From NCBI GenBank assembly GCA_035480495.1, contig DATIHP010000045.1:1-41255 (forward strand): a DNA stretch of 41,255 nucleotides, written 5' to 3'. The position numbers and the translations under genes were made by a program. Numbering within the stretch: position 1 is the stretch's first letter; every line of letters begins with the position of its first letter. Positions 669 to 23,992 of the stretch are shown here, piece after piece. This DNA comes from Candidatus Saccharimonadales bacterium (lineage in GTDB: Bacteria > Patescibacteriota > Saccharimonadia > Saccharimonadales > DATIHP01). Below the pieces are notes generated by a model. It was not told where the DNA came from, did not search any database, and saw nothing but the letters and a program-made list of their open reading frames with translations.

Positions 669-2798
669 CTAGTAATAGTACCAAGACGAAATACCGGTCG
701 AATTGGTGACGTCTTTGACTTTGATAGGGTCGCCGCCGTCTAAGCTGATGGCATAGTCCGCCGTTTCCTGGTCCGTTTTTACCCGATACACAAGCACGCT
801 GTCATTGAGCCATCGGACCGGATACGTGATACCGCTCTGGCTGCGCAGCGTGGTGTCGGTCTTGGTAGCTAGGTCGTAGATAAGTATGACGCCTTTGCCG
901 TCACGTTTATCAACCCAGGCGCTGTGTTTGCCATCCGGACTATCGATGTATATGCGCGAAGTCTGATTGACTGGAGCATTGTTCAGTTTTATCGGCGCTT
1001 TGTCCCCCAGATGATAGTCGTACCATTGCTGCTGGACGGACAGCGTCATGTGGTCATAGGCGGTCCTGAAGATATTCCAGACCTCCTGGCCGAAGACTGT
1101 CTGGGCCGAACTGCCATCCGCATTAATCTTATAGAAGTTGGTCGGCGTCGTCTGGTAGGCGCTGGACGGCGCGTAATAAATGGCTCCTTGCGCTGAGGTC
1201 ACATCATTGAAGTAATTAGCACTGGCCAGTTCTTTGCTGGAGCCGTCTTTGAAATCATAGCTGACAAGCCGGTAGCGTTTGGGGCTGTCTGCGCTGGCAC
1301 CGGCCGCAATCTGCACATAAACCAGCCGGTCACCAGCCCAATCGACAATCTGTATCCGTTCCGAGGTTGCGACAGCGGTCGTGGTATTATCCGTGGTGTT
1401 GATAAGCACCAGGTTGCTCAGCAAGAAACCGTCGCCGTTATGTTGGTTCCCCCGGTTAGAGACATAAGCGACGACCTCCTCCGATGGGTGCGGCACCAGT
1501 ACCATGTTGCTTTCCTGTTCGCTGCCACTGCCTGCTAGTACTAGTTTCTCGTCTTTGCCATCTATATAGACGCTGTAAATATCGTATTTACCAGAGCGTT
1601 TCGAGACAAAGAGCTGCTTGCGGGCTGGCACCAGTCTCACGACATGGTCGCCTTTATCGGCTGGATCAATCATGACTTGTTCGCTGCGGTAATTATCGGC
1701 TTGGACGGTAATCTGAATCTTCTGTTCATCCGGCTTATCGATAGTCAGCTTGATTGCACCCTTATCGTCTGCTGAGGCATCGGCGCCGTTGCCGGTGGCC
1801 AAGGCTTTAGCGATGGGTTTTTTGGATAGGTAATCCGTAATGGTAAACGTATATTGGCTGCCGGTCGGCTTCAGTTCGAAATCACCGAGCGGATTGCTGC
1901 CAAGCCCAAGCGTTATGGTCTTGGAAACCGGTGCGAAGGCGCGTTTTTCAACCAGTAATGTCTGGGGGCCCAGCTTAATATTCTTGAGACTGGCAGTGCC
2001 GCTGGCGTCGGTAACGACACTGACGCTACCGATTTGCACATGGACGTTTTTGAGCGGTTGGCCTGTACTTTCATCTACCACGCTCAATGAGCTGCTGGCA
2101 TGGACGCCGGCTGTATTCAGAACGAAATAACGTGACGTCGGAACCAAGACCGCGGTGATTATGCCAACCAATAAGGCAAGTAGCAGACCCCAGCGCACGA
2201 CCGGTCTGGCAAAGAATGACCTGATTGCGCCAGCAATGTGCTTCTTGGGCTTCGGTTCTTCTTCAGCGGGCTGGTCAGAATCGCGGATGGCGTCCTCTAC
2301 CTCTAGCAATTCATCACCTTCGCCGGCCACGATATCGTCTACAGCCTTGTCCGTCTCCGGATCGGTAACATTTGATACAGCGGCCAGTGCTGGGTCTCCT
2401 TCTATCGGTTTGCCATCATCCGGTATCATTTCGTCCCCTGCTTGGTCTTGGGATCCCAGCCCTGCTATGGCTTCGTCTAGCTTTTCAGCTACGATGGTAG
2501 GTGAATCGCTGTGTTCGGTAATCGTAATCTGCTTGACGGCTGCCGGGGCTTTGGCAGGCGTGGCAACCGGTGGCGCATCAGCATTCTGGGGCTGTGCATC
2601 CGGTAGTTCGGGCGCTGATGGCAAGGCATTTTCGGCGGGTGGTTCTGCCGATGATGACGGAGAAACTTGAATATTTTTGGGAGCTGAAGCAGGTTGTCCA
2701 GCAGGACTATCAGGAATGGTGGGGTCCATCATCTGCTTGACCTTTTGTTCAATGTCTTCGCTGCGCGGATTTAAGTCCTCGGTGCGTTCTTGTTTCAA
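669..2798 (-). CDS. large single-pass surface protein: acidic/Pro-Ala-rich N-terminal region, one TM helix, Ig-like/carboxypeptidase-regulatory-like repeats, C-terminal TolB/PD40-like beta-propeller region
   Basis: 709-aa ORF with a TTG start and AAGGA 12 nt upstream. It has a low-complexity N-terminus (PSAPELPDAQPQNADAPP...) and a TM segment (WGLLLALLVGIITAVLV). The C-terminus is beta-rich with repeated 'YVS../S.DG' strand patterns typical of propeller blades. The domain calls rest on sequence character only. Confidence 0.6.
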   Translation of the reverse strand: MKQERTEDLNPRSEDIEQKVKQMMDPTIPDSPAGQPASAPKNIQVSPSSSAEPPAENALPSAPELPDAQPQNADAPPVATPAKAPAAVKQITITEHSDSPTIVAEKLDEAIAGLGSQDQAGDEMIPDDGKPIEGDPALAAVSNVTDPETDKAVDDIVAGEGDELLEVEDAIRDSDQPAEEEPKPKKHIAGAIRSFFARPVVRWGLLLALLVGIITAVLVPTSRYFVLNTAGVHASSSLSVVDESTGQPLKNVHVQIGSVSVVTDASGTASLKNIKLGPQTLLVEKRAFAPVSKTITLGLGSNPLGDFELKPTGSQYTFTITDYLSKKPIAKALATGNGADASADDKGAIKLTIDKPDEQKIQITVQADNYRSEQVMIDPADKGDHVVRLVPARKQLFVSKRSGKYDIYSVYIDGKDEKLVLAGSGSEQESNMVLVPHPSEEVVAYVSNRGNQHNGDGFLLSNLVLINTTDNTTTAVATSERIQIVDWAGDRLVYVQIAAGASADSPKRYRLVSYDFKDGSSKELASANYFNDVTSAQGAIYYAPSSAYQTTPTNFYKINADGSSAQTVFGQEVWNIFRTAYDHMTLSVQQQWYDYHLGDKAPIKLNNAPVNQTSRIYIDSPDGKHSAWVDKRDGKGVILIYDLATKTDTTLRSQSGITYPVRWLNDSVLVYRVKTDQETADYAISLDGGDPIKVKDVTNSTGISSWYYY

Positions 2799-4786: not shown

Positions 4787-5566
4787 TTAGACGCTGCGCT
4801 TGTAGCGGTTGGTAGCTAATGGCACGAATACTATCAAAATGCCGATAGCCCAGAGCGCAATTTTCCAAACGGCGCCGTTGCCGGGGATGCCAAGCGCCAG
4901 TTCCCGGGCGGCGGTCACCACATGCGTCACCGGCTGGTTGTTAGCAAAGGCTTGCAGCCAACCCGGCATATTTTGGGTTGGTACGAACACGGCACTGGCG
5001 AAGGTCAGCGGGAAGACCATCAAAAAGCCGGCCAGCTGGGCGGTTTCCGTATCACCGGAAGCCATACCTATGACCGCCGCTATCCAACTGAAGGCGAAAC
5101 CATATAGCAACAGCACCCCTATCATGCCAACAGCGTTAAGCGCACCGTGCTGGAAACGGAAGCCCATCAGCGATCCCACGCCAATCATGATACCGATTAC
5201 TACCAGATTACGTATAGTGTCTGACAGAGTCCGGCCGGCCATCACGGCGGCACGGCTCATTGGCAAACTACGGAAGCGGTCCACGATACCCCGGCTCATG
5301 TCGTCAGCCAGCCCTATACCGGTCTGGATGGCGCCGAACATGACCACTTGGGCCAATAATCCCGGCAATAAGAAATTTATGTACTTGCCTCCTGGCACCG
5401 CGCCGATTCTAACCGCGCCTCCAAAGACATAATTGAACAGCACCAGAAACATGATGGGTTGGATTGATGAGAAGACCAGCAAGCGCGGTAGGCGGACATA
5501 GCGCAGAAGGTTGCGCTTGGTAATGGTCCAGGTATCGCTTATCTCAGAAGCAATTGCTTTAAACAT
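4787..5566 (-). CDS. ABC-2 type exporter permease (DrrB-like)
   Basis: 259 aa with about 6 TM segments. An 8-nt overlap couples it to the upstream ATPase gene, the typical ABC-2 arrangement. Confidence 0.8.
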   Translation of the reverse strand: MFKAIASEISDTWTITKRNLLRYVRLPRLLVFSSIQPIMFLVLFNYVFGGAVRIGAVPGGKYINFLLPGLLAQVVMFGAIQTGIGLADDMSRGIVDRFRSLPMSRAAVMAGRTLSDTIRNLVVIGIMIGVGSLMGFRFQHGALNAVGMIGVLLLYGFAFSWIAAVIGMASGDTETAQLAGFLMVFPLTFASAVFVPTQNMPGWLQAFANNQPVTHVVTAARELALGIPGNGAVWKIALWAIGILIVFVPLATNRYKRSV

Positions 5567-6545
5567 TGCCCTTCTCCTTCCGGTGGCGTTTTTGGGCCGG
5601 TTCTGCTACTTCAGCTTTCTTGCCGGTCAAGGTCAGGAATACGTCATCCAAAGAGGGGCGATGCAGACTGAGCGATGCCGGATTTATCTTGGCGCTGTCC
5701 AGTGCACGTACGACATCGGTCAGCACGGCCGAGCCGTCTTTGACCGGCAGATTGATGGACAGTGTGTCATCATTGAAAGCCGGTGTCCCTATTGTAGATA
5801 CCGCCGCCATGGCCTTATCCTTATCCTTCAGGTCGCTTAGCTGGAATTCTATGACATCGCCGCCCAGACGCCGTTTCAGTTGATCACTGGTGCCTTCCGC
5901 GATGACTTTGCCTCGGTCAATGACCGCAATCTTATCTGCCAGCTCATCAGCCTCTTCCAGATACTGTGTCGTCAGCAGGATACTTGTGCCCTCCGCGACC
6001 AGTTCACGGATGATGCTCCATAGCTCCAGCCGGGTGCGCGGATCAAGCCCGGTCGTCGGCTCGTCCAGGAACAACACCTTGGGGTGTCCGACCAAGCTTG
6101 CACCCAGGTCCAAGCGCCGGCGCATACCTCCGGAATATGTCTTGACCGGACGGCCTGCGGCATCGGCAAGATTAAGACGCTCCAGCAAATCCTCAGTGCG
6201 TTTTTTAATCTCAGCTTTCGGCAGATGGTACAGGTTGCCTACCATCGTGATATTTTCACGCCCCGTGAGGAATTCATCCACGGCGGCGAACTGGCCGGCC
6301 AAGCCGATAAGCCGGCGGACTTTCACCGGATTTTCGGTCACATCCACATCCAAGACCTTGGCCGTACCGCGGGTAGGTTCGGTCAGGGTGCTTAAGATTC
6401 TGACAAGCGTGGTTTTGCCGGCGCCGTTCGGGCCTAGCAAGCCGAATATCTTGCCTTCCTCCGCCCGCAGCGATACACCATCCAAGGCTTTTACATCACC
6501 GAAATACTTGGCAGTATCAGTCACATCAAAGGCAAACTTGCTCAT
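5559..6545 (-). CDS. ABC transporter ATP-binding protein (DrrA/daunorubicin-resistance type)
   Basis: Walker A GPNGAGKTT, signature YSGGMRRRLDL, Walker B LFLDEPTTGLD, and a C-terminal DrrA-like extension. Confidence 0.9.
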   Translation of the reverse strand: MSKFAFDVTDTAKYFGDVKALDGVSLRAEEGKIFGLLGPNGAGKTTLVRILSTLTEPTRGTAKVLDVDVTENPVKVRRLIGLAGQFAAVDEFLTGRENITMVGNLYHLPKAEIKKRTEDLLERLNLADAAGRPVKTYSGGMRRRLDLGASLVGHPKVLFLDEPTTGLDPRTRLELWSIIRELVAEGTSILLTTQYLEEADELADKIAVIDRGKVIAEGTSDQLKRRLGGDVIEFQLSDLKDKDKAMAAVSTIGTPAFNDDTLSINLPVKDGSAVLTDVVRALDSAKINPASLSLHRPSLDDVFLTLTGKKAEVAEPAQKRHRKEKGNV

Positions 6546-7417: not shown

Positions 7418-8398
7418 TCATAAGACTACCCTTATACGCCCAAAGTTTTTACCATTGAGATCCTTCAGCGCAATATTTTCCCATGTAAATTTTGCTTTTT
7501 CAAGCTGATTTGGCGAAAGAATACCCTGGCGAAAACTGTCATTTCTTGTATTCAATACTCCAACACCGGTCCAGAATTTCGCTATTGAGTCCTTGGTTGA
7601 GCCGACTGCTAGGAATACTCCTGAGGGTAATGGTTGGGTAAAGGCTAGGATTTTATCAGGCCTAAACGTATAACCCGCTTCCCGTTTGGTCAGTGAGATA
7701 TATGCATCATGGAGCAGAGTATTCTTCTCCATCCAAAGAGAGTCTGCGCGCTGTTGTGAATTCGGTTTTGCGTTCAGTTCAATCATTGCCGCGCGTTCCT
7801 TACTGACAACCGGTAGGCCTCCGGGTAGTTTTAGGGCAAACTTTTCTACGTCTTGCTCCAGTTTTTGATAAAACGCTTCGGGCGATTCAAACTGTTCATC
7901 GACGCCGGTTATGGTCATTTTGAAATTTTTTGGTTGATATTGCTTTAGGAAACTTAAAAGGTTCCGGTAGCTTGACTTGTAGGTCTCAACCTCAGTTAGG
8001 CTAATATTGTCCAGTTTTGGAAGTATCAGATCGTCTACGAACGAATCAAACCAAACTCCCGGTTCGTGAATCTCACAAATCGGCGCAAGCCATTTGGTGT
8101 AGTACATGAGTGCAAAGAGTTCCGCCCAGTCAACTTCTGGTGTTTCCTCAAGGCGCCAAAGTTTATAAGCTCCGTGCGTGAACATGACATTAATAGGTTT
8201 ACTCTGCTCAACGTTTGTACGTATTGCCTCTCTAATATGTGCAATGAGTTCGGGGTTAGCGGAATACTTACGGAATTTTTTGGACAACAGGATTTTTGAA
8301 ATCGCTTCAATAAGCTCTTCATTGTTTGCAGGCTTCTCTAAGCCAAGCGGCACATTGAGTTCTTTGAGTTTGGTCTGGATGTATTCTTGTGCGGTCAT
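7418..8398 (-). CDS. uncharacterised 326-aa protein, paralog 1 of a duplicated family in this locus
   Basis: It aligns over its full length with 9092..10072. Shared motifs are MTAQEYI, SKKFRK, KLW, PE[VI]DWAELF, EPG, LKQY, GSTK..AKFW and GKNF.RIR. There is no TM segment and I cannot assign a family confidently. Confidence 0.75.
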   Translation of the reverse strand: MTAQEYIQTKLKELNVPLGLEKPANNEELIEAISKILLSKKFRKYSANPELIAHIREAIRTNVEQSKPINVMFTHGAYKLWRLEETPEVDWAELFALMYYTKWLAPICEIHEPGVWFDSFVDDLILPKLDNISLTEVETYKSSYRNLLSFLKQYQPKNFKMTITGVDEQFESPEAFYQKLEQDVEKFALKLPGGLPVVSKERAAMIELNAKPNSQQRADSLWMEKNTLLHDAYISLTKREAGYTFRPDKILAFTQPLPSGVFLAVGSTKDSIAKFWTGVGVLNTRNDSFRQGILSPNQLEKAKFTWENIALKDLNGKNFGRIRVVL

Positions 8399-8476
8399 GA
8401 TTTTGGAGATGCGGGGCAGACATGAACCTGCCGTATGTAGCTTTGCAAGCTACCACCTATTCTCGGTCACCGCATC
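8399..8476 (-). promoter_or_regulatory. structured 5' leader, riboswitch-like three-way junction, copy 1
   Basis: Minus-strand RNA elements are:
- P1: GAUGCGG (8476-8470) / CCGCAUC (8414-8408)
- J1/2: UGACCGAGAAUAGGUGG
- P2: UAGCUU-GCA-AAGCUA
- J2/3: CAUAC
- P3: GGCAG-GUUCAUGU-CUGCC
Only UCCAAAAUC (9 nt, no SD) separates P1 from the AUG. The leader is part of a 100-nt block (8378-8477) identical to 10052-10151. Confidence 0.6.
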
Positions 8477-8482
8477 AGTATC

Positions 8483-8491
8483 ATTTTAACA
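8483..8491 (-). promoter_or_regulatory. extended -10 promoter TGTTAAAAT for leader copy 1
   Basis: The minus-strand TGnTAAAAT ends 6 nt upstream of the first P1 nucleotide. The homologous position in copy 2 is TGTTACAAT. Confidence 0.5.
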
Positions 8492-8516
8492 GAGATGGCT
8501 GGCTTAAATGAAAATG

Positions 8517-9095
8517 TTAGGTACTTATTCTTTCTTTGCCGAACGTGGGTCGATATATGCAGAACAGCATCACCACACAAGATAAAACTATGTAAGCTTG
8601 GAATATGACGCTCGACCTCAACCCGTCATGAACAATAGCCAAAGTTGCGGCTATACCTTCAAGCCAGTACATTAAAGGCGCTTCAGATTTTGGCAACTTC
8701 CAAGTTTTAAGCACTGCCGGTATATATGCGACTGCATCTGCCAGTATGGCAAAAGCTAATGCCCAAATGCCACTTCCTGTTACCTGCCAAGCCAGAATGC
8801 CAAGTACAGCAATAATTGCACAGCTGATATCAAGCCTGCTGGTGCCACCGATTCCTCTCTTTATTGATAAAAGCGCCAAGAGAAGGCTTCTTCCAAAGAA
8901 AAGTAGCGAAAGTAGTAAGACTCCCAGACCGGCGTGTGCCGCTATTGTCCCCACAAGATTAGCCACCGAAACTATGAAAAGTACTACACGCGTTGTCCGG
9001 TGCGGACGAGTCGTGCCTTTCAGGATGCTTAGCACATAATCTGTGGTTCCAACGACGGATAGGGTTGTGGCTATTCCCAGTAAAGCCGGTTTCAC
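8517..9095 (-). CDS. 7-TM membrane protein with 3+1+3 internal repeat (SWEET/PQ-loop/PnuC-like transporter candidate)
   Basis: 192 aa with a GTG start overlapping the upstream stop (GTGA at 9092-9095). I predict about seven hydrophobic helices. Two similar loop motifs follow helix 1 and helix 5 (SILKGTTRP and AVLKTWKLPKSE). Confidence 0.55.
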   Translation of the reverse strand: MKPALLGIATTLSVVGTTDYVLSILKGTTRPHRTTRVVLFIVSVANLVGTIAAHAGLGVLLLSLLFFGRSLLLALLSIKRGIGGTSRLDISCAIIAVLGILAWQVTGSGIWALAFAILADAVAYIPAVLKTWKLPKSEAPLMYWLEGIAATLAIVHDGLRSSVIFQAYIVLSCVVMLFCIYRPTFGKERIST

Positions 9096-10072
9096 GACGA
9101 TATTTCTTTCAAAATCCTAATTCTCTTAAAATTTTTACCTTCAAGGCCCGGGACATGGGTCTTTTGCCAATCAAATTGAGCTGTTTCCAGCTGTTTGGGT
9201 GTCAGGACAAGTTCGTTATAACTATCGCCGGCATGTTCAAGAGCTCCTACCGCGACCCAAAATTTTGCATATGACTTCTTGGTACTGCCTGTGGCGATAC
9301 AGCCTGGATAATAGGTTGGACACGAGGGAATCATTGAGGGGTCATTTATATATCTTTCCATGGTTTTGGTCCGTTCTATGCTCTGATGTATAAGCTCGGC
9401 CTTTTCGCGCCACAATGGGTCGTCCGTTTGCCCGGGTTTTAACCGCACATTAAGTTCCGTCGCTTCCCTTTGATGTTCGTCCAGTTCGGGAAGTTTGCCT
9501 CCTAGTTCTTTCGACACTTTTGCCTTGGCTTGCTCAAGTTCTGCCAGATATTCTGATATATCGCCATATTCATCGCCGTATCTTTTGTATGATACCGCAA
9601 CGTTTTCTGGCAGGTACTGTTTGAGCCAATTCAGCATAGCCACGAAAGAATCCGAGTATTTGTCCGTTTCCTGCTTGGGCAAGTTATTCATGTTTTCAAG
9701 GACAACATCTTCTGAGTAATACTCCAGCCTTGCCCCCGGCTCATAAACACTCGCGATTGATTTCATCCAGCGCAGTAGGTATGTCGTGACGAACAGCTCA
9801 GCCCAATCAATCTCCGGCGCCTCATCAAAATGCCACAGTTTATTGCCGCCAAAGATTACATTGACGACAATCGGCTTATTGTCTTTGACGGAAAGTTGTA
9901 TGGCCTTTTTAGTGATTGTTATCACGTTGTCGTCGGCTTTGAGTTTACGGAACTTCTTGGACATGACTTTAGCAAAGATGGCTTCTTCAATGGGCGTACT
10001 ACTAACATCAGTCAGTTCCGTGGACTCTTTGAGCGCCTGGAGTGTTGAGATGATGTATTCTTGTGCGGTCAT
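9092..10072 (-). CDS. uncharacterised 326-aa protein, paralog 2 of the duplicated family
   Basis: It has the same length and shared motifs as 7418..8398. Its first 7 codons and its leader are nucleotide-identical to paralog 1, and the rest is strongly diverged. Confidence 0.75.
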   Translation of the reverse strand: MTAQEYIISTLQALKESTELTDVSSTPIEEAIFAKVMSKKFRKLKADDNVITITKKAIQLSVKDNKPIVVNVIFGGNKLWHFDEAPEIDWAELFVTTYLLRWMKSIASVYEPGARLEYYSEDVVLENMNNLPKQETDKYSDSFVAMLNWLKQYLPENVAVSYKRYGDEYGDISEYLAELEQAKAKVSKELGGKLPELDEHQREATELNVRLKPGQTDDPLWREKAELIHQSIERTKTMERYINDPSMIPSCPTYYPGCIATGSTKKSYAKFWVAVGALEHAGDSYNELVLTPKQLETAQFDWQKTHVPGLEGKNFKRIRILKEISS

Positions 10073-10150
10073 GATTTTGGAGATGCGGGGCAGACATGAA
10101 CCTGCCGTATGTAGCTTTGCAAGCTACCACCTATTCTCGGTCACCGCATC
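10073..10150 (-). promoter_or_regulatory. structured 5' leader, riboswitch-like three-way junction, copy 2
   Basis: Nucleotide-identical to 8399-8476 at a constant offset of +1674. P1 strands lie at 10144-10150 and 10082-10088. Confidence 0.6.
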
Positions 10151-10156
10151 AAGATT

Positions 10157-10165
10157 ATTGTAACA
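10157..10165 (-). promoter_or_regulatory. extended -10 promoter TGTTACAAT for leader copy 2
   Basis: Minus-strand TGTTACAAT ends 6 nt upstream of P1, the same spacing as copy 1. Confidence 0.5.
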
Positions 10166-10351: not shown

Positions 10352-10388
10352 GTTTGTAGCCAATAAATAATAAAAAGACAAACCCAAA

Positions 10389-10415
10389 CCTCCCCGCCAT
10401 AAACGGGGAGGTTTT
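10389..10415 (+). terminator. intrinsic terminator hairpin CCUCCCCG-CCAUAAA-CGGGGAGG plus U4; its 3' arm doubles as the SD for the TTG start at 10420
   Basis: The 8-bp stem is identical to that of 3710-3732. GGAGG ends at 10411, 8 nt before TTG 10420. Confidence 0.7.
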
Positions 10416-10697: not shown

Positions 10698-12008
10698 TTA
10701 GGGCGCCAGCCGGTTGATATCCCGCGGGAACAGAGTGGCTTCTTTGACGTTATTCAGATTCAGTAATTTCTCAACCGTGCGCTCCAACCCCCAGCCGAAG
10801 CCGCCATGCGGCGGTAAGCCGTATTTGAACGCCTGCAGGTAATATTTGAAACCCGGATGCTCAGGGTCGCCCTTGGCTAATTCTTTGAGTTGTTTTACTA
10901 AGACCTCGTAACGGTGTTCGCGCATGGGTACGGTAGCTATTTCTACGCCGCGGAAAAGCAGGTCGGAGCGGTCGGCGACCTTTGGATTTTTCTCGTTGAC
11001 TTTGTGGTAGAACTTCATGCTGCTGACCGGCCACTCCGTGACATATACGGCCTCACTACCGAGGTTTTTCTTGGCATAATCGCATATCCACTTTTCCTCA
11101 TCGGGCCGCAAGTCTTCCTCGCCGACAGTTTTGGTGCCGGTGGCTTTGGAGTACAGTTCGTGTATCTGGGCCATAGTCAAAGATGGTATCGGTTCCGCCA
11201 GAACAGGTTTTTGAGCATTCCACATCTTAAGTTCAGGTCCGCAGTCCTTCCAGACCTTTTCTACGATATGGCGCAGCAGGCCGCCTGTGAAATCACGCAG
11301 TTCCTCAAAGGTCACGAAGCCCATTTCCGCATCGATGGTAATGTACTCCGTCATGTGGCGCGTGGTGGCGCTTGGTTCGGCGCGGTATGTCGGATTGGTC
11401 TCAAAGACACGCTCAAAGACGCCTACCATCATCTGCTTATAAAACTGGGCGCTCTGCGCCAGCGTGGCTTCTTTGCCAAAATAATCCAGCTTGAATACCT
11501 CGGCGCCGCCTTCAGTAGCTCCGGACAGCAGTTTGGGTGTGTTCATCTCCGTGAAACCGTTCTGGATAAAATACTCGCGCGCCGCTTCCAGGACCTTGGC
11601 TTGGATACGGAAAATAGCCGTCTCCTGTAGGTTGCGCAAACCGATGACCCGGTTATCGAACAGTGTGTCCAGGTTGTCCGGTTTGTGGCTGAGAGGCTTG
11701 TCAATCTCAACGGGCGGCTCCTCGGTCACCGGCACCAGGACCTCAATGTGCGGTTCGCGCAGTTCAGCACCGCCCGGCGCGCGCTCCTCCTTGAATACCT
11801 TGCCCTTTACTTTCAGGACCGTACCGATATGCAGACCGCGCAGTTTTTCCACCTCTTTTTTGTCTTCCACCACCATCTGGACCAAACCGCCGCGGTCACG
11901 GATGTTTATGAAGTTCAGCCCACCCAGCAGCCGCTTCTTATGCAGCCAACCCTGGATTTCCGCCTCTTTGCCGATGTGTTTAGCAATATCTGTGCTTAAA
12001 ACTCTCAT
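10698..12008 (-). CDS. aspS: aspartate--tRNA ligase, archaeal/eukaryotic type (class IIb; possibly non-discriminating)
   Basis: 436 aa with an N-terminal OB-fold anticodon-binding domain. Motifs are GATEGGAEVF...LAQSAQFYKQ, RAEPSATTRHMTEY and GLPPHGGFGWGLER. The size and the ATEGG motif fit type-2 AspRS rather than AsnRS. Confidence 0.9.
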   Translation of the reverse strand: MRVLSTDIAKHIGKEAEIQGWLHKKRLLGGLNFINIRDRGGLVQMVVEDKKEVEKLRGLHIGTVLKVKGKVFKEERAPGGAELREPHIEVLVPVTEEPPVEIDKPLSHKPDNLDTLFDNRVIGLRNLQETAIFRIQAKVLEAAREYFIQNGFTEMNTPKLLSGATEGGAEVFKLDYFGKEATLAQSAQFYKQMMVGVFERVFETNPTYRAEPSATTRHMTEYITIDAEMGFVTFEELRDFTGGLLRHIVEKVWKDCGPELKMWNAQKPVLAEPIPSLTMAQIHELYSKATGTKTVGEEDLRPDEEKWICDYAKKNLGSEAVYVTEWPVSSMKFYHKVNEKNPKVADRSDLLFRGVEIATVPMREHRYEVLVKQLKELAKGDPEHPGFKYYLQAFKYGLPPHGGFGWGLERTVEKLLNLNNVKEATLFPRDINRLAP

Positions 12009-12054: not shown

Positions 12055-13122
12055 TCACATTTCGACCGTTTCGTCGATGTGCTCTTCCGGGATAGAGACA
12101 GGTGCTTCTTGGTCGTGGTGTTCGGTATGTTCTTTGGTAGCAGCACGACTGGCTACGGCGCGTAAGTCATCGTATTGGTCAAATTCATCGATGATGGGCG
12201 AGCCGATGATAGCTTCCAATACGTCTTCGATTGTAATAGTGCCGACGTACTCCTCAAAACTGTTCACCACCACGAATAACTGCCGGTGCGTACGTAGGAT
12301 TGCCTGCAAGGCATCCTGAAGTGATTGGTCCTCATGTATATAGGAAACCTCGGGTTTCATGAGGGATTGCACCGAGCCGCTGTGCTTGGCATGGACCAGG
12401 TCGCGTAGATAGAGCGTGCCGATGATATTATCGCGTTTGTTCTCATACACCGGAAACCGTGAATGGCCGGAGGCGTACAGTTCATCCATGAGTATCGGAC
12501 CTAGGGGCTCGGTGGCCGATACTACCTTGACCGCCCTACGCGGCACCATGTGCTGCGCTATGGTCTCATCACCGAATTGCAGCGCGTGCAGTGCGATTTC
12601 CAGCTCGGTTTTCTCGATACGGTTATCCGGCTGGACCTGCTGCCTTTCCAACAAATCGACCAAGTCACGACGATCGTATAGGCCGGTGTGGACCTGTATG
12701 GGTCGATGGCGATGGATAAAACGGACCGTCCAGTCAATCAAAGGATGCAGAACTCCGACGACTTTGGCAAGCAACGGAGCGCACCAGCCGGCCAGTCTCC
12801 TGCCGACCAAGCTCACCCGCGCTGCCGGAATAAACACAAATCCCACCCAGACCAGGATGATGCTGGCAGTAAGGGCGAACCACAGCGGCGCCGTCCTGGT
12901 GACCACGACGAAGAACCCGGCACTGGTTACGCCTATCAGGAACCAAAGCACTGCCCGCAGGCTGTGCCCGTATCCGACCGCCTTAAGCATTGCCGTGGCC
13001 AACTTATCTCCCTGGCGGGCGTCTCGCTTGAGTTCCTTTATGGGGACACGCGAGTAGGTCCGTTGCAAGCTCACTGTCAAAAGAGCAAGTAACGCTAGCG
13101 TGACCGTAAGGATTGTCTGCAT
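12055..13122 (-). CDS. CNNM/DUF21-type membrane protein with CBS-pair domain (HlyC/CorC family, lacking the C-terminal CorC_HlyC domain)
   Basis: 355 aa with about 4 N-terminal TM helices followed by a typical CBS-pair region (VPRRAVKVV...SRFPVYE...IIGTLYLRDL...VNSFEEYVGTITIEDVLEAIIG). Confidence 0.8.
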   Translation of the reverse strand: MQTILTVTLALLALLTVSLQRTYSRVPIKELKRDARQGDKLATAMLKAVGYGHSLRAVLWFLIGVTSAGFFVVVTRTAPLWFALTASIILVWVGFVFIPAARVSLVGRRLAGWCAPLLAKVVGVLHPLIDWTVRFIHRHRPIQVHTGLYDRRDLVDLLERQQVQPDNRIEKTELEIALHALQFGDETIAQHMVPRRAVKVVSATEPLGPILMDELYASGHSRFPVYENKRDNIIGTLYLRDLVHAKHSGSVQSLMKPEVSYIHEDQSLQDALQAILRTHRQLFVVVNSFEEYVGTITIEDVLEAIIGSPIIDEFDQYDDLRAVASRAATKEHTEHHDQEAPVSIPEEHIDETVEM

Positions 13123-13823
13123 GTTTCCATGGTACTATATATAGCGATAAATATGGGAAGCATGTGAGCAACAGATTCTTTATTACGGTACTGGTGGTCA
13201 TTGCGGTAGTGGTTGGCGCGTTTGCGTTTGCGAAGCACAGCAGCAACTCAAAACATAATTCCGCGAACGCCGGCGCTCCCACTAATCATACTGACGGCAG
13301 TACCAAGAGCGGCGTGGTCCTTATTGAATATGGTGATTACCAATGCTCTGCCTGCTATCAGTACGAACCGTTGGTCAAAGCAGTCCGTGAGAAATATAAA
13401 GACCAGATTATTGTACAGTTTCGCAACTTTCCCATTACTTCCAAGCACCCGAATGCCTTTGCGGCTGCCCGAGCCGCCGAAGCATCCGCGAAGCAGAATA
13501 AATTCTGGGAAATGCATGACAAGTTATATGAGACCCAAGATCCAGGCGGGCAAACAGGCTGGGTAGCAAGTAGTAATCCAGCCGTCTTCTTTGTCAGCTT
13601 TGCGGAAGGCCTTGGGCTGGACAAGACCAAGTTTCAATCAGATATGAATAGCTCAGCGGTGAATAATCTTATTCTCGCTGATATGGCCGCTGGCCAGAAG
13701 GTTCCCGTTGAAGGAACGCCTACCTTCGTTCTTGACGGCAAAAAAGTGGAGCAAAACCCCCGCAATATTGAAGGGTTCAATAAATTAATCGACGATGCTA
13801 TCGCTGCCCATCAAAAACAATAG
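13113..13823 (+). CDS. DsbA-family thiol:disulfide oxidoreductase, membrane-anchored
   Basis: It has an N-terminal TM helix, the CxxC active site (YQCSACYQYEP) and a thioredoxin-fold pattern with GTPTFVLDG. The true start may be the in-frame GTG at 13164, which would avoid overlapping the divergent gene. Confidence 0.8.
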   Translation: MSACFHGTIYSDKYGKHVSNRFFITVLVVIAVVVGAFAFAKHSSNSKHNSANAGAPTNHTDGSTKSGVVLIEYGDYQCSACYQYEPLVKAVREKYKDQIIVQFRNFPITSKHPNAFAAARAAEASAKQNKFWEMHDKLYETQDPGGQTGWVASSNPAVFFVSFAEGLGLDKTKFQSDMNSSAVNNLILADMAAGQKVPVEGTPTFVLDGKKVEQNPRNIEGFNKLIDDAIAAHQKQ

Positions 13824-21748: not shown

Positions 21749-22326
21749 AGCTTATGTCTTTTTATATATCTTTGTACTGCTGGGGGCAAGCCGTCAGCAG
21801 CTTTGTCCCGCTTGAGCAGCAGACGGATAGTTGAGGAGGTTACCTCTTCATAGGCAGGGTGAATGATTTCATATCTGAAGCGCAGGTTGCGGGTCTTTTC
21901 CAGGGTGTGAAGTGTCGCCGTGAGGTCGGACATATCCCGGAGTCGCGCAGCAATCATAAGTTCGGCCACATTCACCATGGCGCCTACATGCGGCCAGCTG
22001 GCGATATGGCTTATGACGTCCGCACCGAATAGCAGCACTAACTGATAGCCCGCAAAACGGGCCTGCAATTTCGGCAATGTCTCATGCACCGTGAAACGGG
22101 CCTGTTCCAAGGCAATTATGCCATAGCGGCCTTCATGGGCAATCGCCAAACGTACCATAGCGCGGCGGTGTTCAAGCGCCCGCACACCTTGTTTGCGGCG
22201 CGGCCGGGGCTCGGGCAAGAACATGACTTTCTCTAAGCCCGCATCTAAGGCCGCCTGTGCGAAGGCGATATGGCCGTCATGAATCGGGTCGAAGGTTCCG
22301 GCAAATATACCTATTTTTTTGGTCAT
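21724..22326 (-). CDS. nadD: nicotinate-nucleotide adenylyltransferase
   Basis: GIFAGTFDPIHDGHI matches the (H/T)xGH nucleotidyltransferase motif, and a C-terminal SSTIR motif is present. I place the start at ATG 22326, which overlaps the upstream gene's TGA (ATGA). The track ORF extends to 22353. Confidence 0.85.
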   Translation of the reverse strand: MTKKIGIFAGTFDPIHDGHIAFAQAALDAGLEKVMFLPEPRPRRKQGVRALEHRRAMVRLAIAHEGRYGIIALEQARFTVHETLPKLQARFAGYQLVLLFGADVISHIASWPHVGAMVNVAELMIAARLRDMSDLTATLHTLEKTRNLRFRYEIIHPAYEEVTSSTIRLLLKRDKAADGLPPAVQRYIKRHKLYSTTTAD

Positions 22327-23792
22327 GCTGCTTTTAGTATACCTACCGCCCATGAGCCAGCTTTAGATTTTTCCCTTTTTGGCGGCTTACTTTCATGCAG
22401 TACTTTTCCGTCACAGATGTCTACTTCATATTTACAGTGTGGGCAGCGCCAACTTTTTTCTTTGACTACATCTTTTTTATTGACAGTTTCACGGCATTTT
22501 ATGCAGCGGATTTTTCCCGATTTGGAATCAGTTTCATCGTTTAATCGGTCGCTTGATTGTTCATCTGTATTTTCCTGGCCGTCTTTATTTTTTTCCTCCT
22601 GGAGGGCCCCGGGACAGGACGAAGATTTGGCAGTTTTTTCAGCATTGTGAAGAGCGGCGTCGGCTAATTCATAATTTCCTGATGCACGATGCGTACGAGC
22701 CTGTTGTATGTGGCCAGCTGCTGTTGGACCAAATACATTTGGATTAATTGACTTGTCGTCTACTGCGTTTCGCACCCCTGCTTTTTCTGATAATTTACCT
22801 AAGCGCTTGGTAGCATCCGTTGGTGTTTTAAATGTATGCCTTTCGCTAATCAGTTGGCGCCTGATATCTTCGACCATAGATTTAAGACCCGCTTGGCGCT
22901 GCCTCCAAAATTCTCTATGTTTTACATAGTCTTGCTGAGGTTTATCTTCTCCAAAAAATGTTCCCTCCGGCTCATCAAACCAAGCCACTGGGTCAACCAC
23001 ACCATTCGGCATTAATTTTTTAGGTATTAACAGGGGGGAATCTAGTATTTGAGTAGTTGACATGTTATCAAAATTTTTACCTAGTTTCTTGGCTATATAT
23101 TTGACTGCTTTTATGTCATGCCTCTCGGCTCCTGGACGCTTAACCCCTGCTACAAATGCAGATTCCAACTTTACACTGTCTTCTTGCGCCGTTGTCGCCT
23201 GCATAGCACAAGACATTGTGTCTACAAAAAAGTCTTCTTCAATCAATTCTTCTTGGGTCATATTATCCGGGACAAGTGAAAAGACGACAAAATAGTTATC
23301 CTCTAGCAGGCCCATCTCCTGGGCAATATCTTGACGATATTTATTGCGAGCCTCTGCTTGCAAGCGTTCACGCATTTGCCAGGTACGGCCAACGAAACGC
23401 AAGCTATTGCCATTTACTGAATCCAGGCTCTGGCCATGCTGTCCAAGACCGTTTTGCCCGTCTGCACGCAAGTCAACTTCCGTGATTGAGCCAGCCTTAA
23501 AACTACGCTCTATGTAATCTGCCTCAATGTTTTGATCTACCATATTTATGCCGTTCGCATCGCCAGCAGCGGCTAAGCGGATTCCTTCTAAGAGGTTATG
23601 GGAAATGCCTGGATGTTGGTCACTTTTTTTTGGCAATTCACCCGCCACTGCTAAAGAACCGTTAGCTCTCATGAGTCGTTTGGCGCGTTGTTGTGCCAGC
23701 TGGTCTTCGGGCATCGTGGGCATAACAATCACATCAGTTGCCATCCGTTCTGCGGTTGGTAATCGTTCGGCTATCGCGGCTGCTCCGGCCAT
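22323..23792 (-). CDS. orphan ~489-aa soluble protein with C-terminal CxxC...CxxC zinc ribbon and Lys-rich tail
   Basis: The track ORF runs to 23909 with a GTG start. ATG 23792 has GAGGG 7 nt upstream, and the 39-codon extension is Cys-rich, non-protein-like and overlaps a strong hairpin. The zinc ribbon is IRCIKCRET...WRCPHCKYE. I recognise no family. Confidence 0.6.
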   Translation of the reverse strand: MAGAAAIAERLPTAERMATDVIVMPTMPEDQLAQQRAKRLMRANGSLAVAGELPKKSDQHPGISHNLLEGIRLAAAGDANGINMVDQNIEADYIERSFKAGSITEVDLRADGQNGLGQHGQSLDSVNGNSLRFVGRTWQMRERLQAEARNKYRQDIAQEMGLLEDNYFVVFSLVPDNMTQEELIEEDFFVDTMSCAMQATTAQEDSVKLESAFVAGVKRPGAERHDIKAVKYIAKKLGKNFDNMSTTQILDSPLLIPKKLMPNGVVDPVAWFDEPEGTFFGEDKPQQDYVKHREFWRQRQAGLKSMVEDIRRQLISERHTFKTPTDATKRLGKLSEKAGVRNAVDDKSINPNVFGPTAAGHIQQARTHRASGNYELADAALHNAEKTAKSSSCPGALQEEKNKDGQENTDEQSSDRLNDETDSKSGKIRCIKCRETVNKKDVVKEKSWRCPHCKYEVDICDGKVLHESKPPKREKSKAGSWAVGILKAA

Positions 23793-23799
23793 ATTAAAA

Positions 23800-23820
23800 C
23801 CCTCGCTCGGTGAGCAAGGG
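23800..23820 (-). promoter_or_regulatory. terminator-like hairpin whose 3' arm contains the SD of the downstream orphan gene
   Basis: Minus-strand CCCUUGCUC-ACC-GAGCGAGGG forms a 9-bp stem. It is followed by UUUUAAU and then AUG 23792. Confidence 0.5.
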
Positions 23821-23992
23821 CTATGAATCAAATTCAACGCTCCTGCTCGGGAGACTTTATGTATGTTGTATCGGGCTTTAACCGTTGCGGCACAGCATAG
23901 GAATTTCACCTATTTCCAACAATTTTTATTAATAAAGAACCTGTGAGTAGTAGTGTAACACGGCCCATAGACGCTATATGTAGTATTTTTGT

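Follow-up and report, generated by a model that had tools for sequence, protein, structure and literature searches.

A tRNA-Cys-like leader RNA paired with genes of a predicted isonitrile-synthase-fold protein family in Saccharibacteria and other CPR bacteria

The 41,255-nt contig DATIHP010000045.1 of a Candidatus Saccharimonadales bacterium (assembly GCA_035480495.1), which was analysed at its full length and is called the window below, carries two genes for 326-aa proteins, paralog 1 and paralog 2, each standing behind the same 78-nt leader. Our analysis indicates that this leader is a degenerate and previously unannotated cloverleaf RNA derived from tRNA-Cys, and that the unit of RNA and gene is ancient and found throughout the Candidate Phyla Radiation (CPR). 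The conserved pairing is pointing to an RNA-protein partnership across the ultrasmall CPR/Patescibacteria that appears to be undescribed. The reading which we favour, with a probability of roughly 0.4, is that a dedicated, non-decoding tRNA-like structure (TLS) is co-transcribed with an enzyme, would be released by 3' processing and would then be recognised and used by this enzyme as a substrate or carrier. The features of the window on which the analysis is centred are the following:

10157..10165, minus strand: extended -10 promoter TGtTACAAT of the upstream unit (sequence and promoter scan)
10078..10150, minus strand: tRNA-Cys-like element copy 2, 73 nt (sequence, fold, homology and covariation)
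9092..10072, minus strand: paralog 2, 326 aa, predicted PvcA/IsnA-fold protein of a CPR-wide family (open reading frame and paralogy; 354 homologs)
8483..8491, minus strand: extended -10 promoter TGtTAAAAT of the downstream unit; as with the upstream promoter, its last base is 6 nt before G1
8404..8476, minus strand: tRNA-Cys-like element copy 1, 73 nt, with the same sequence as copy 2
7418..8398, minus strand: paralog 1, 326 aa, of the same predicted PvcA/IsnA-fold family, more widespread clade (open reading frame and paralogy; 896 homologs)

The leaders extend from 8476 to 8399 and from 10150 to 10073, and each consists of a 73-nt TLS plus 5 nt, the TLS being essentially the whole 5' untranslated region (UTR). 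It comprises a 7-bp acceptor stem (GAUGCGG/CCGCAUC), a 3-bp D stem with a 7-nt D loop lacking GG, an anticodon-like arm with the loop UUGCAAA and a 5-bp T-like stem with an 8-nt loop. In copy 2, G1 is at 10150, U73 at 10081 and CCA at 10080-10078, followed by the 5-nt spacer AAAUC and the ATG at 10072; in copy 1, G1 is at 8476, GCA at 8446-8444, U73 at 8407, CCA at 8406-8404 and the ATG at 8398. Both copies carry U33, GCA, A37, U73 and CCA, so that the Cys identity features U73 and G34-C35-A36 are found on a cloverleaf with a 7-bp acceptor stem. The predicted fold has four helices (-29.4 kcal/mol, z = -2.1) and leaves the ATG region unpaired.

The upstream regions of both paralogs are identical from 1 nt before G1 to codon 7, over about 100 nt, and diverge on either side of this tract; a repeat finder returned a 138-nt repeat at 90% identity spanning the leader copies. 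This identity is far beyond chance, because about 100 nt are identical while the proteins share only 36% identity across 325 aa (BLASTP, E = 5e-69) and because the element recurs in other genomes. A preliminary description made from the DNA alone had read the two 326-codon genes as an old duplication with shared motifs (MTAQEYI, SKKFRK, KLW, PE[VI]DWAELF, EPG, LKQY, GSTK..AKFW and GKNF.RIR, all of which are present), had placed each behind an extended -10 promoter and an identical 78-nt leader, and had noted a GTGA overlap at 9092-9095, where the GTG start of a 192-aa membrane protein gene overlaps the TGA stop of paralog 2. All of these observations are borne out by the sequence.

Standard searches do not recognise the element in the window. 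ARAGORN reported 0 tRNA genes there and hence missed both TLS copies, and neither leader had an Rfam match at the gathering threshold or at E <= 10, RF00005 included; Rfam 15 has no model for this element. In this respect the window copies differ from their homologs in other lineages (type B, see below), which tRNA detectors do find.

The identity of the leader was settled by comparative data. We retrieved 80 loci of about 12 kb per genome from GTDB species representatives with a profile of the protein family, covering Saccharibacteria, Paceibacteria, Microgenomates (Levy-, Roizman- and Woykebacteria), Berkelbacteria and other CPR lineages, and inspected the 160 nt before each family gene. Within the 80 loci plus the window, the element precedes the family gene in 68 of 82 copies. 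In about 25 loci of CPR lineages other than Saccharibacteria, ARAGORN itself identifies the element as tRNA-Cys(gca), ending 0-8 nt before the ATG, and the window leader can be aligned with these called elements along its full length. It had been conceded in the preliminary description that the leader identity might be merely a recent gene-conversion tract with no conservation elsewhere; the conservation of the element across phyla rules this out as the whole story.

Two types of the element can be distinguished. Type B (Paceibacteria, Microgenomates and others) keeps the elbow motifs G18G19 and GGTTCRANTCC, and rarely encodes CCA (2/23). The elements of Saccharibacteria, the window copies among them, are of type A: their D loop is short (GAGAAUA) and lacks GG, their T loop is either 8 nt long or unrelated (CAUAGCAA in Nanosyncoccus), and CCA is encoded in 45/45 cases. 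Covariation strongly supports the type A cloverleaf: 97.3% of the cells are paired and 14 of 21 pairs show compensatory changes, as compared with 35-45% paired in slid controls, and none of 500 shuffles was as good. In both types alike, there is little or no variation in base pairs 1-4 (GAUG/CAUC), at U73 and at C74, while pairs 5-7 covary, which suggests that the acceptor end is under sequence selection. The G-C-A-A loop is likewise retained across both types, with GCA in at least 113 of 149 unique elements. Type A has lost the D-loop GG and the canonical T-loop; the top of the acceptor stem (GAUG/CAUC), U73, CCA and the loop with G-C-A-A have been kept.

The type of RNA follows the lineage of the organism and not the paralog clade, as type A is found with both clades and type B with both. 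In addition, two copies within a genome share lineage-specific oddities, e.g. a GGA-type loop (CGGAA) in both copies of L031. Since the type follows the lineage and the copies share such oddities, the copies seem to be homogenised or to co-evolve within genomes, and gene conversion or co-evolution is the likely process. The 100% identity of the leaders in the window would then be the extreme of a general trend towards similarity within a genome.

Whether the element still decodes has to be considered, as it might be an aberrant but real tRNA-Cys of Saccharibacteria that is merely co-transcribed with the gene. The window copies, with U33, GCA, A37, U73 and CCA, would suit such a role, the window and the Saccharibacteria loci are free of any further tRNA-Cys according to ARAGORN, and mitochondrial tRNAs are known to tolerate the loss of D/T-loop contacts. 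The missing second tRNA-Cys is however uninformative, because the loci cover only about 12 kb per genome. U33, which all decoding tRNAs share, is replaced by C or G in over half of the 149 unique elements, although the window copies have it. The covariation between positions 32 and 38 is of the Watson-Crick type. In several Saccharibacteria, the two L031 copies among them, the loop reads GGA, and in L024 it reads UGA. Accordingly, the features of a decoding tRNA, i.e. an invariant U33, an open 7-nt anticodon loop and a G18G19/T54-Psi55-C56 elbow, are not found throughout the elements. Locus L054 moreover contains a canonical tRNA-Cys (2148-2222, minus strand; acceptor GGCUCGA, U33, U73) only 4 kb from a GATGCGG-type element on the same contig, and therefore both RNAs coexist in one genome. 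A decoding role is for these reasons very improbable. From the loss of U33, the 32/38 pairing, the GGA and UGA loops and the separate tRNA-Cys of L054 we conclude that the element is an extra, non-decoding derivative of tRNA-Cys. The features it has kept would be those read by a cysteinyl-tRNA synthetase (CysRS) or another enzyme acting on the acceptor end.

The promoters have a peculiar geometry. In 56 of the 68 elements the end of a -10 hexamer lies exactly 6 nt before G1, and 57 have a TGn extension. Of 46 ordinary tRNA genes in these loci, a single one shows a -10-like hexamer (TAnnnT) whose end is 6 nt before +1, and at none is the extended form TGnTAnnnT found there. Because of this placement, which ordinary tRNAs lack, transcription is predicted to start at G1, and a start at G1 would mean that no RNase P step is needed. 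On the 3' side, most copies without CCA have 1-3 nt between U73 and the ATG; where CCA is encoded, the distance is mostly 7-11 nt, made up of CCA and a further 4-8 nt. A Shine-Dalgarno (SD) sequence was found in the spacer of only 1 of 68 elements. It is mainly the distance of 1-3 nt between a 7-bp helix and the ATG, which makes translation of the unprocessed RNA hard to imagine, that leads us to infer a tRNA-type 3' cleavage yielding a leaderless or near-leaderless mRNA.

This arrangement could also be an expression device only, in which an old tRNA-Cys gene serves as a 5' stabiliser against 5' exonuclease and/or as a processing signal from which a leaderless mRNA results, and has no tie to the function of the protein. 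Known 5'-terminal mRNA stabilisers require a helix at the 5' end, and here a helix begins at the predicted +1 of an mRNA with no SD. In locus L071, an ordinary tRNA-Ala(TGC) with G3-U70, A73 and CCA (5917-5992, plus strand) ends 8 nt before the family ATG, in the usual place of the Cys-like element, and the loci L005 and L026 have gained a 190-nt insert with an SD. We nevertheless consider a mere expression device improbable, as it leaves unexplained why one GAUG-type element with a GCA loop has been kept with one protein family across CPR phyla while the 46 other tRNAs lack the design, why U73, CCA and G-C-A-A are conserved, and why the element occurs as a separate gene beside a distant homolog (L084, see below).

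The inserts just mentioned lie at 3659-3856 in L005 and at 1809-2006 in L026, both from Saccharibacteria. They comprise about 190 nt between element and family gene, are recognisably similar to each other, have no Rfam match and are followed by the family gene with its SD. Two metagenomic matches share the 268-nt spacing of these loci.

The linkage between element and gene was additionally examined by searching metagenome contigs, at the level of DNA only, for a 22-nt pattern of type A; there were 122 matches. A family gene follows in 93 of them (tblastn), and its ATG almost always lies 79-88 nt from G1; 63 of these 93 genes are of the paralog 1 type. On one further contig (L108), which is cut 213 nt after G1, the gene start is visible, so that all 94 intact type A elements that could be tested (94/94) are followed by the family gene. 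Another 8 matches were untestable, since the contig ends within 200 nt, and the remaining ones are chance matches in GC-rich coding sequence or truncated relics of the 5' half. The relics, consisting of promoter and 5' half, stand before unrelated genes in L099/L123, L122 and L144; an SD and another open reading frame (ORF) come after the relic in L099/L123. The linkage of element and gene thus seems to be obligate and to be the sole conserved context. An insertion of a mobile element at a tRNA gene was ruled out as its origin, because no integrase or conserved cargo is present, the element is complete and the spacing to the ATG is fixed.

So tight a linkage would also be expected if the TLS were an operator acting in cis, i.e. 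if it stayed on the mRNA and the protein bound its own leader to repress translation, as the threonyl-tRNA synthetase does on thrS. Each paralog has a TLS copy of its own, and in L001 and L031, where a second family gene is present, even tandem neighbours have separate promoters and TLS copies. The metagenome scan contained no intact stand-alone type A TLS (0 among 94 cases). The ATG is only 1-11 nt from the acceptor helix, so that a bound protein would occlude it, and shared lineage features are expected of copies within a genome if both must fit the same protein. On the other hand, an encoded CCA, an invariant U73-C74 and a type B cloverleaf capable of forming an L shape exceed the needs of an operator, the acceptor stem is unlike that of the housekeeping tRNA-Cys of the same genome (L054), and with the ATG only 1-3 nt from U73, even a derepressed mRNA would hardly be translatable as long as it is unprocessed. 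Furthermore, in locus L084 a GATGCGG-type tRNA-Cys (5114-5188, minus strand) occurs as a separate convergent gene, 34 nt past the stop of the distant family member P0329 (4001-5080, plus strand). As the element is a separate gene there, a role of the RNA in trans is possible. We regard the cis-acting operator as unlikely, but as a genuine contender.

The neighbours of P0329 in L084 include a thioredoxin-reductase-like gene, two DsbA-like genes and Fur. The other distant homologs (L081-L083 and L085-L089) have no leader, L084 alone having the RNA, and one distant homolog lies in a small, biosynthetic-looking cluster with a methyltransferase, a hydrolase and an aminotransferase. In L081 (1-300), the 3' half of a tRNA is found at the contig edge upstream of the GC-rich distant homolog, followed by a partial repeat of the T-arm/acceptor sequence.

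When all ORFs of the 80 loci plus the window were clustered, no conserved neighbour of any kind was found, which rules out a conserved operon partner; among the 81 loci, the 192-aa membrane protein is a neighbour in 7 and an aspartyl-tRNA synthetase (AspRS) in 5, and a PvcB/IsnB-type oxygenase is not conserved as a neighbour. This bears on the model of the preliminary description, in which the leader was a metabolite riboswitch controlling a salvage or uptake unit of enzyme plus transporter. The leader is indeed conserved and structured, the transporter-fold gene is translationally coupled to paralog 2 in this genome, and an adenosylcobalamin (AdoCbl) riboswitch elsewhere in the window indicates that the organism uses riboswitches. 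Nevertheless, the element is derived from a tRNA with acceptor stem and CCA, it has no Rfam match even at E = 10, and neither a terminator between leader and ATG in the window nor an SD-sequestering platform is present that could serve for expression control. Of the co-occurrence that had been proposed as a check, the part concerning the leader holds in related genomes and the part concerning the seven-helix gene does not. With the transporter in so few loci and nothing else conserved beside the gene, the salvage or uptake unit has no comparative support, and a riboswitch is barely credible.

The proteins themselves belong to a large family, with 354 homolog clusters for paralog 2, 896 for paralog 1 and 513 representative clusters at 50% identity. 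Every member that has been given a name by its source is called 'hypothetical'. The family is retained in mammal-associated Saccharibacteria, e.g. in Nanosyncoccus and in rumen metagenome-assembled genomes (L074-L080). Searches of the three window proteins against NCBIfam, PADLOC and PHROGs gave no match and the only Pfam result was below threshold: paralog 2 scores 16.9 bits (E = 0.0046) on PF05141 (DIT1_PvcA), whose gathering score is 26.4 bits, and paralog 1 does not match. After these scans an origin as a defence system or from phages was rejected. More distant relatives score 18-29.5 bits on PF05141, with P0329 alone above the threshold, and a profile search of the PDB gave only a weak match to PIsnA (E = 0.08).

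The structural model is clearer. AlphaFold2 predicts paralog 2 with a pLDDT of 93.8 and a pTM of 0.92, and the best PDB matches found with Foldseek are PIsnA/PvcA structures (9dhm, 9dh4 and 3e59), with E-values of 1e-9 to 8e-8 and TM-scores of 0.52-0.64 over about 330 columns, i.e. the whole chain. This model and its matches indicate that the proteins have the fold of the PvcA/IsnA isonitrile synthases. A weaker, fold-level resemblance to class Ic aminoacyl-tRNA synthetases is suggested by the tail of the Foldseek results, which contains many tyrosyl- and tryptophanyl-tRNA synthetase (TyrRS/TrpRS) structures (E about 1e-3, TM about 0.3). In the profile alignment with PIsnA, FGGNK...APEIDWAE...YEPGARLEYYSED is set against FPTKS...APDMAE...YPPGARIIICSDG, and the segment YEPGARL is aligned with YPPGARI. 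Since the alignment pairs these segments, the Y-x-P-G-A-R resemblance on which the preliminary description had hesitantly based a relation to PvcA/Dit1 is genuine, and the relation is real at the level of the fold (Foldseek E about 1e-9, TM about 0.6), with distant members reaching the PF05141 threshold.

The basic motif SKKFRK is invariant across the family and is not conserved in the aligned segment of PIsnA; distant members retain it together with GGYKLWR and PExDWAEFF. The sequence GSTK(K/R)S (residues 262-267) resembles KMSKS only loosely.

Taken together, these data are consistent with the following scheme. One transcript per unit would start at G1, and a tRNA-type 3' processing step would separate a free TLS from a leaderless or near-leaderless mRNA. 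In elements lacking an encoded CCA the cut would probably be made by RNase Z behind U73; in Saccharibacteria it would probably fall directly behind the encoded CCA or close to it. The TLS would serve as a dedicated non-decoding acceptor RNA of the Cys type, probably still charged by CysRS. The PvcA-fold enzyme would recognise it and act chemically on the amino acid esterified to it, with the TLS as substrate or carrier, and the co-transcription would keep RNA and enzyme in step. A more specific proposal, which we hold to be possible but doubtful, is that this constitutes a tRNA-dependent pathway of CPR bacteria, in which the TLS is cut from the mRNA, charged by CysRS and used as the obligate aminoacyl carrier or substrate of a PvcA/IsnA-fold enzyme performing alpha-amine or thiol-related chemistry.

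There are several points which weigh against the release and use of the TLS by the enzyme. Each of the mechanistic steps, from the transcription start and the cleavage to the charging and the recognition of the RNA by the protein, is itself inferred. The known PvcA/IsnA enzymes use free amino acids and not aminoacyl-tRNA, and on inspection neither a HIGH nor a KMSKS motif can be made out in the alignments of the family, which together with a TM-score of about 0.3 leaves the likeness to synthetases a distant one. Loops reading GGA or UGA would weaken the recognition by CysRS. The lack of intact stand-alone elements in the metagenome scan and the separate promoter and TLS of each tandem copy in L001 and L031 fit a requirement in cis at least as well as a role in trans. 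Finally, the tRNA-Ala in front of the L071 gene hints that any tRNA may serve.

Several elements of the scheme have precedents: tRNAs that are co-transcribed with protein genes, leaders that mimic tRNAs and dedicated non-proteinogenic tRNAs are already known. The operator of E. coli thrS is likewise a tRNA-like structure in the 5' UTR close to the start codon, and the product of its gene likewise has a synthetase-related fold. Here, however, a complete cloverleaf with acceptor stem, discriminator and CCA starts at +1, no SD lies between domains, the protein is no synthetase, and its binding to the RNA is putative. In the E. coli operons metY-nusA-infB and thrU-tyrU-glyT-thrT-tufB, tRNAs also come first in the transcription unit and are released by tRNA processing, as is predicted here. 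The tRNAs of these operons decode normally and carry 5' leaders, and the protein genes behind them use an SD, whereas here the transcription start is predicted at +1, the ATG follows 1-11 nt after U73 with no SD, and a non-decoding RNA is obligately linked to its gene across phyla.

The closest parallels in terms of a dedicated tRNA are pylT-pylS, the cell-wall tRNA-Gly/FemXAB system of S. aureus and the cyclodipeptide synthases (CDPS), which depend on aminoacyl-tRNA. They share with the present unit an extra tRNA with a degenerate D/T elbow, in which synthetase identity elements are kept and decoding features lost, and an adjoining enzyme with weak resemblance to class I synthetases. They differ in that here the RNA forms the 5' UTR of the mRNA to which it is fused, the fold of the enzyme is PvcA-like and neither that of GNAT nor that of CDPS proteins, and aminoacylation and transfer are putative. 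The tRNA-like structures of turnip yellow mosaic virus (TYMV) and brome mosaic virus (BMV) are also non-decoding mimics with acceptor-end identity and CCA that are attached to an mRNA; those are 3'-terminal with a free CCA, while the element described here is 5'-terminal and would need cleavage to expose it.

Isonitrile synthases convert Tyr or Trp plus ribulose 5-phosphate to an isonitrile, usually with a PvcB/IsnB-type oxygenase as neighbour. Compared with PvcA/IsnA/Dit1 (PF05141; PDB 3e59, 9dh4 and 9dhm), the window proteins show the same overall fold, as predicted, and an aligned core segment, but only about 13% identity and a score below the Pfam gathering score; they carry SKKFRK, and their family stands outside clusters with a PvcB/IsnB-type partner and is uniquely coupled to a tRNA-like RNA. 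The literature library that was searched contained no paper connecting tRNA-like RNAs, CysRS or isonitrile-synthase homologs to CPR bacteria.

If the RNA is in fact the substrate of the enzyme, the unit would represent a new tRNA-dependent system with the first tRNA-dependent member of the isonitrile-synthase superfamily, and the element would be a new class of bacterial tRNA-like RNA that has been missed by standard tRNA finders. For a family of more than 1,200 sequence clusters in public data, whose named members are all 'hypothetical', the tie to a tRNA-Cys-derived RNA is the first functional handle. It also bears on the annotation of tRNA genes in CPR genomes, on how mRNAs without an SD are made and translated in these bacteria, and on the evolutionary reach of the isonitrile-synthase fold, including its possible relation to class I synthetase-like folds.

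The other features of the locus are:

8517..9095, minus strand: 192-aa membrane protein with seven predicted helices and a GTG start (ORF, sequence, AlphaFold2 and Foldseek)
10386..10414, minus strand: strong hairpin terminator of aspS, predicted to insulate the module from read-through
10698-12008: aspS, coding for a non-discriminating AspRS, upstream of the module

Because of the strong aspS terminator at 10414-10386, the unit of the upstream paralog is expected to have a start of its own.

The membrane protein has 42 homologs in its family and no match in Pfam or NCBIfam. The 3+1+3 transporter-like arrangement of the preliminary description is supported by AlphaFold2, which predicts seven helices (pLDDT 86.7), and by Foldseek, whose best matches are cystinosin (TMq 0.62-0.69), the KDEL receptor and SWEET, with an overall TMq of 0.55-0.69 and a best E-value of only 8e-3. 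A reading as a 3+1+3 transporter, perhaps of the PQ-loop/TOG type, is reasonable on these models. The protein differs from the known members in that the positions of the PQ motifs are occupied by P31-H32 and P135-K136. A cystine carrier as the top match beside a Cys-type RNA is suggestive, although similarity of fold cannot assign a substrate. Given its distribution, the membrane protein appears to be an accessory neighbour and no conserved part of the module.

Two further observations concern the window. A gene for a DsbA-like, thioredoxin-like lipoprotein lies at 13113-13823 (plus strand), 3 kb from the module; it shares a thiol-disulfide theme with the neighbourhood in L084, which may be coincidence. 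The AdoCbl-II (B12) riboswitch, RF01689, is found at 23857-23935 (minus strand; 47.9 bits, E = 1e-8), directly upstream of a 528-aa ORF (22323-23909) of unassigned function with a Cys-rich C-terminal tail, whose annotated start it overlaps.

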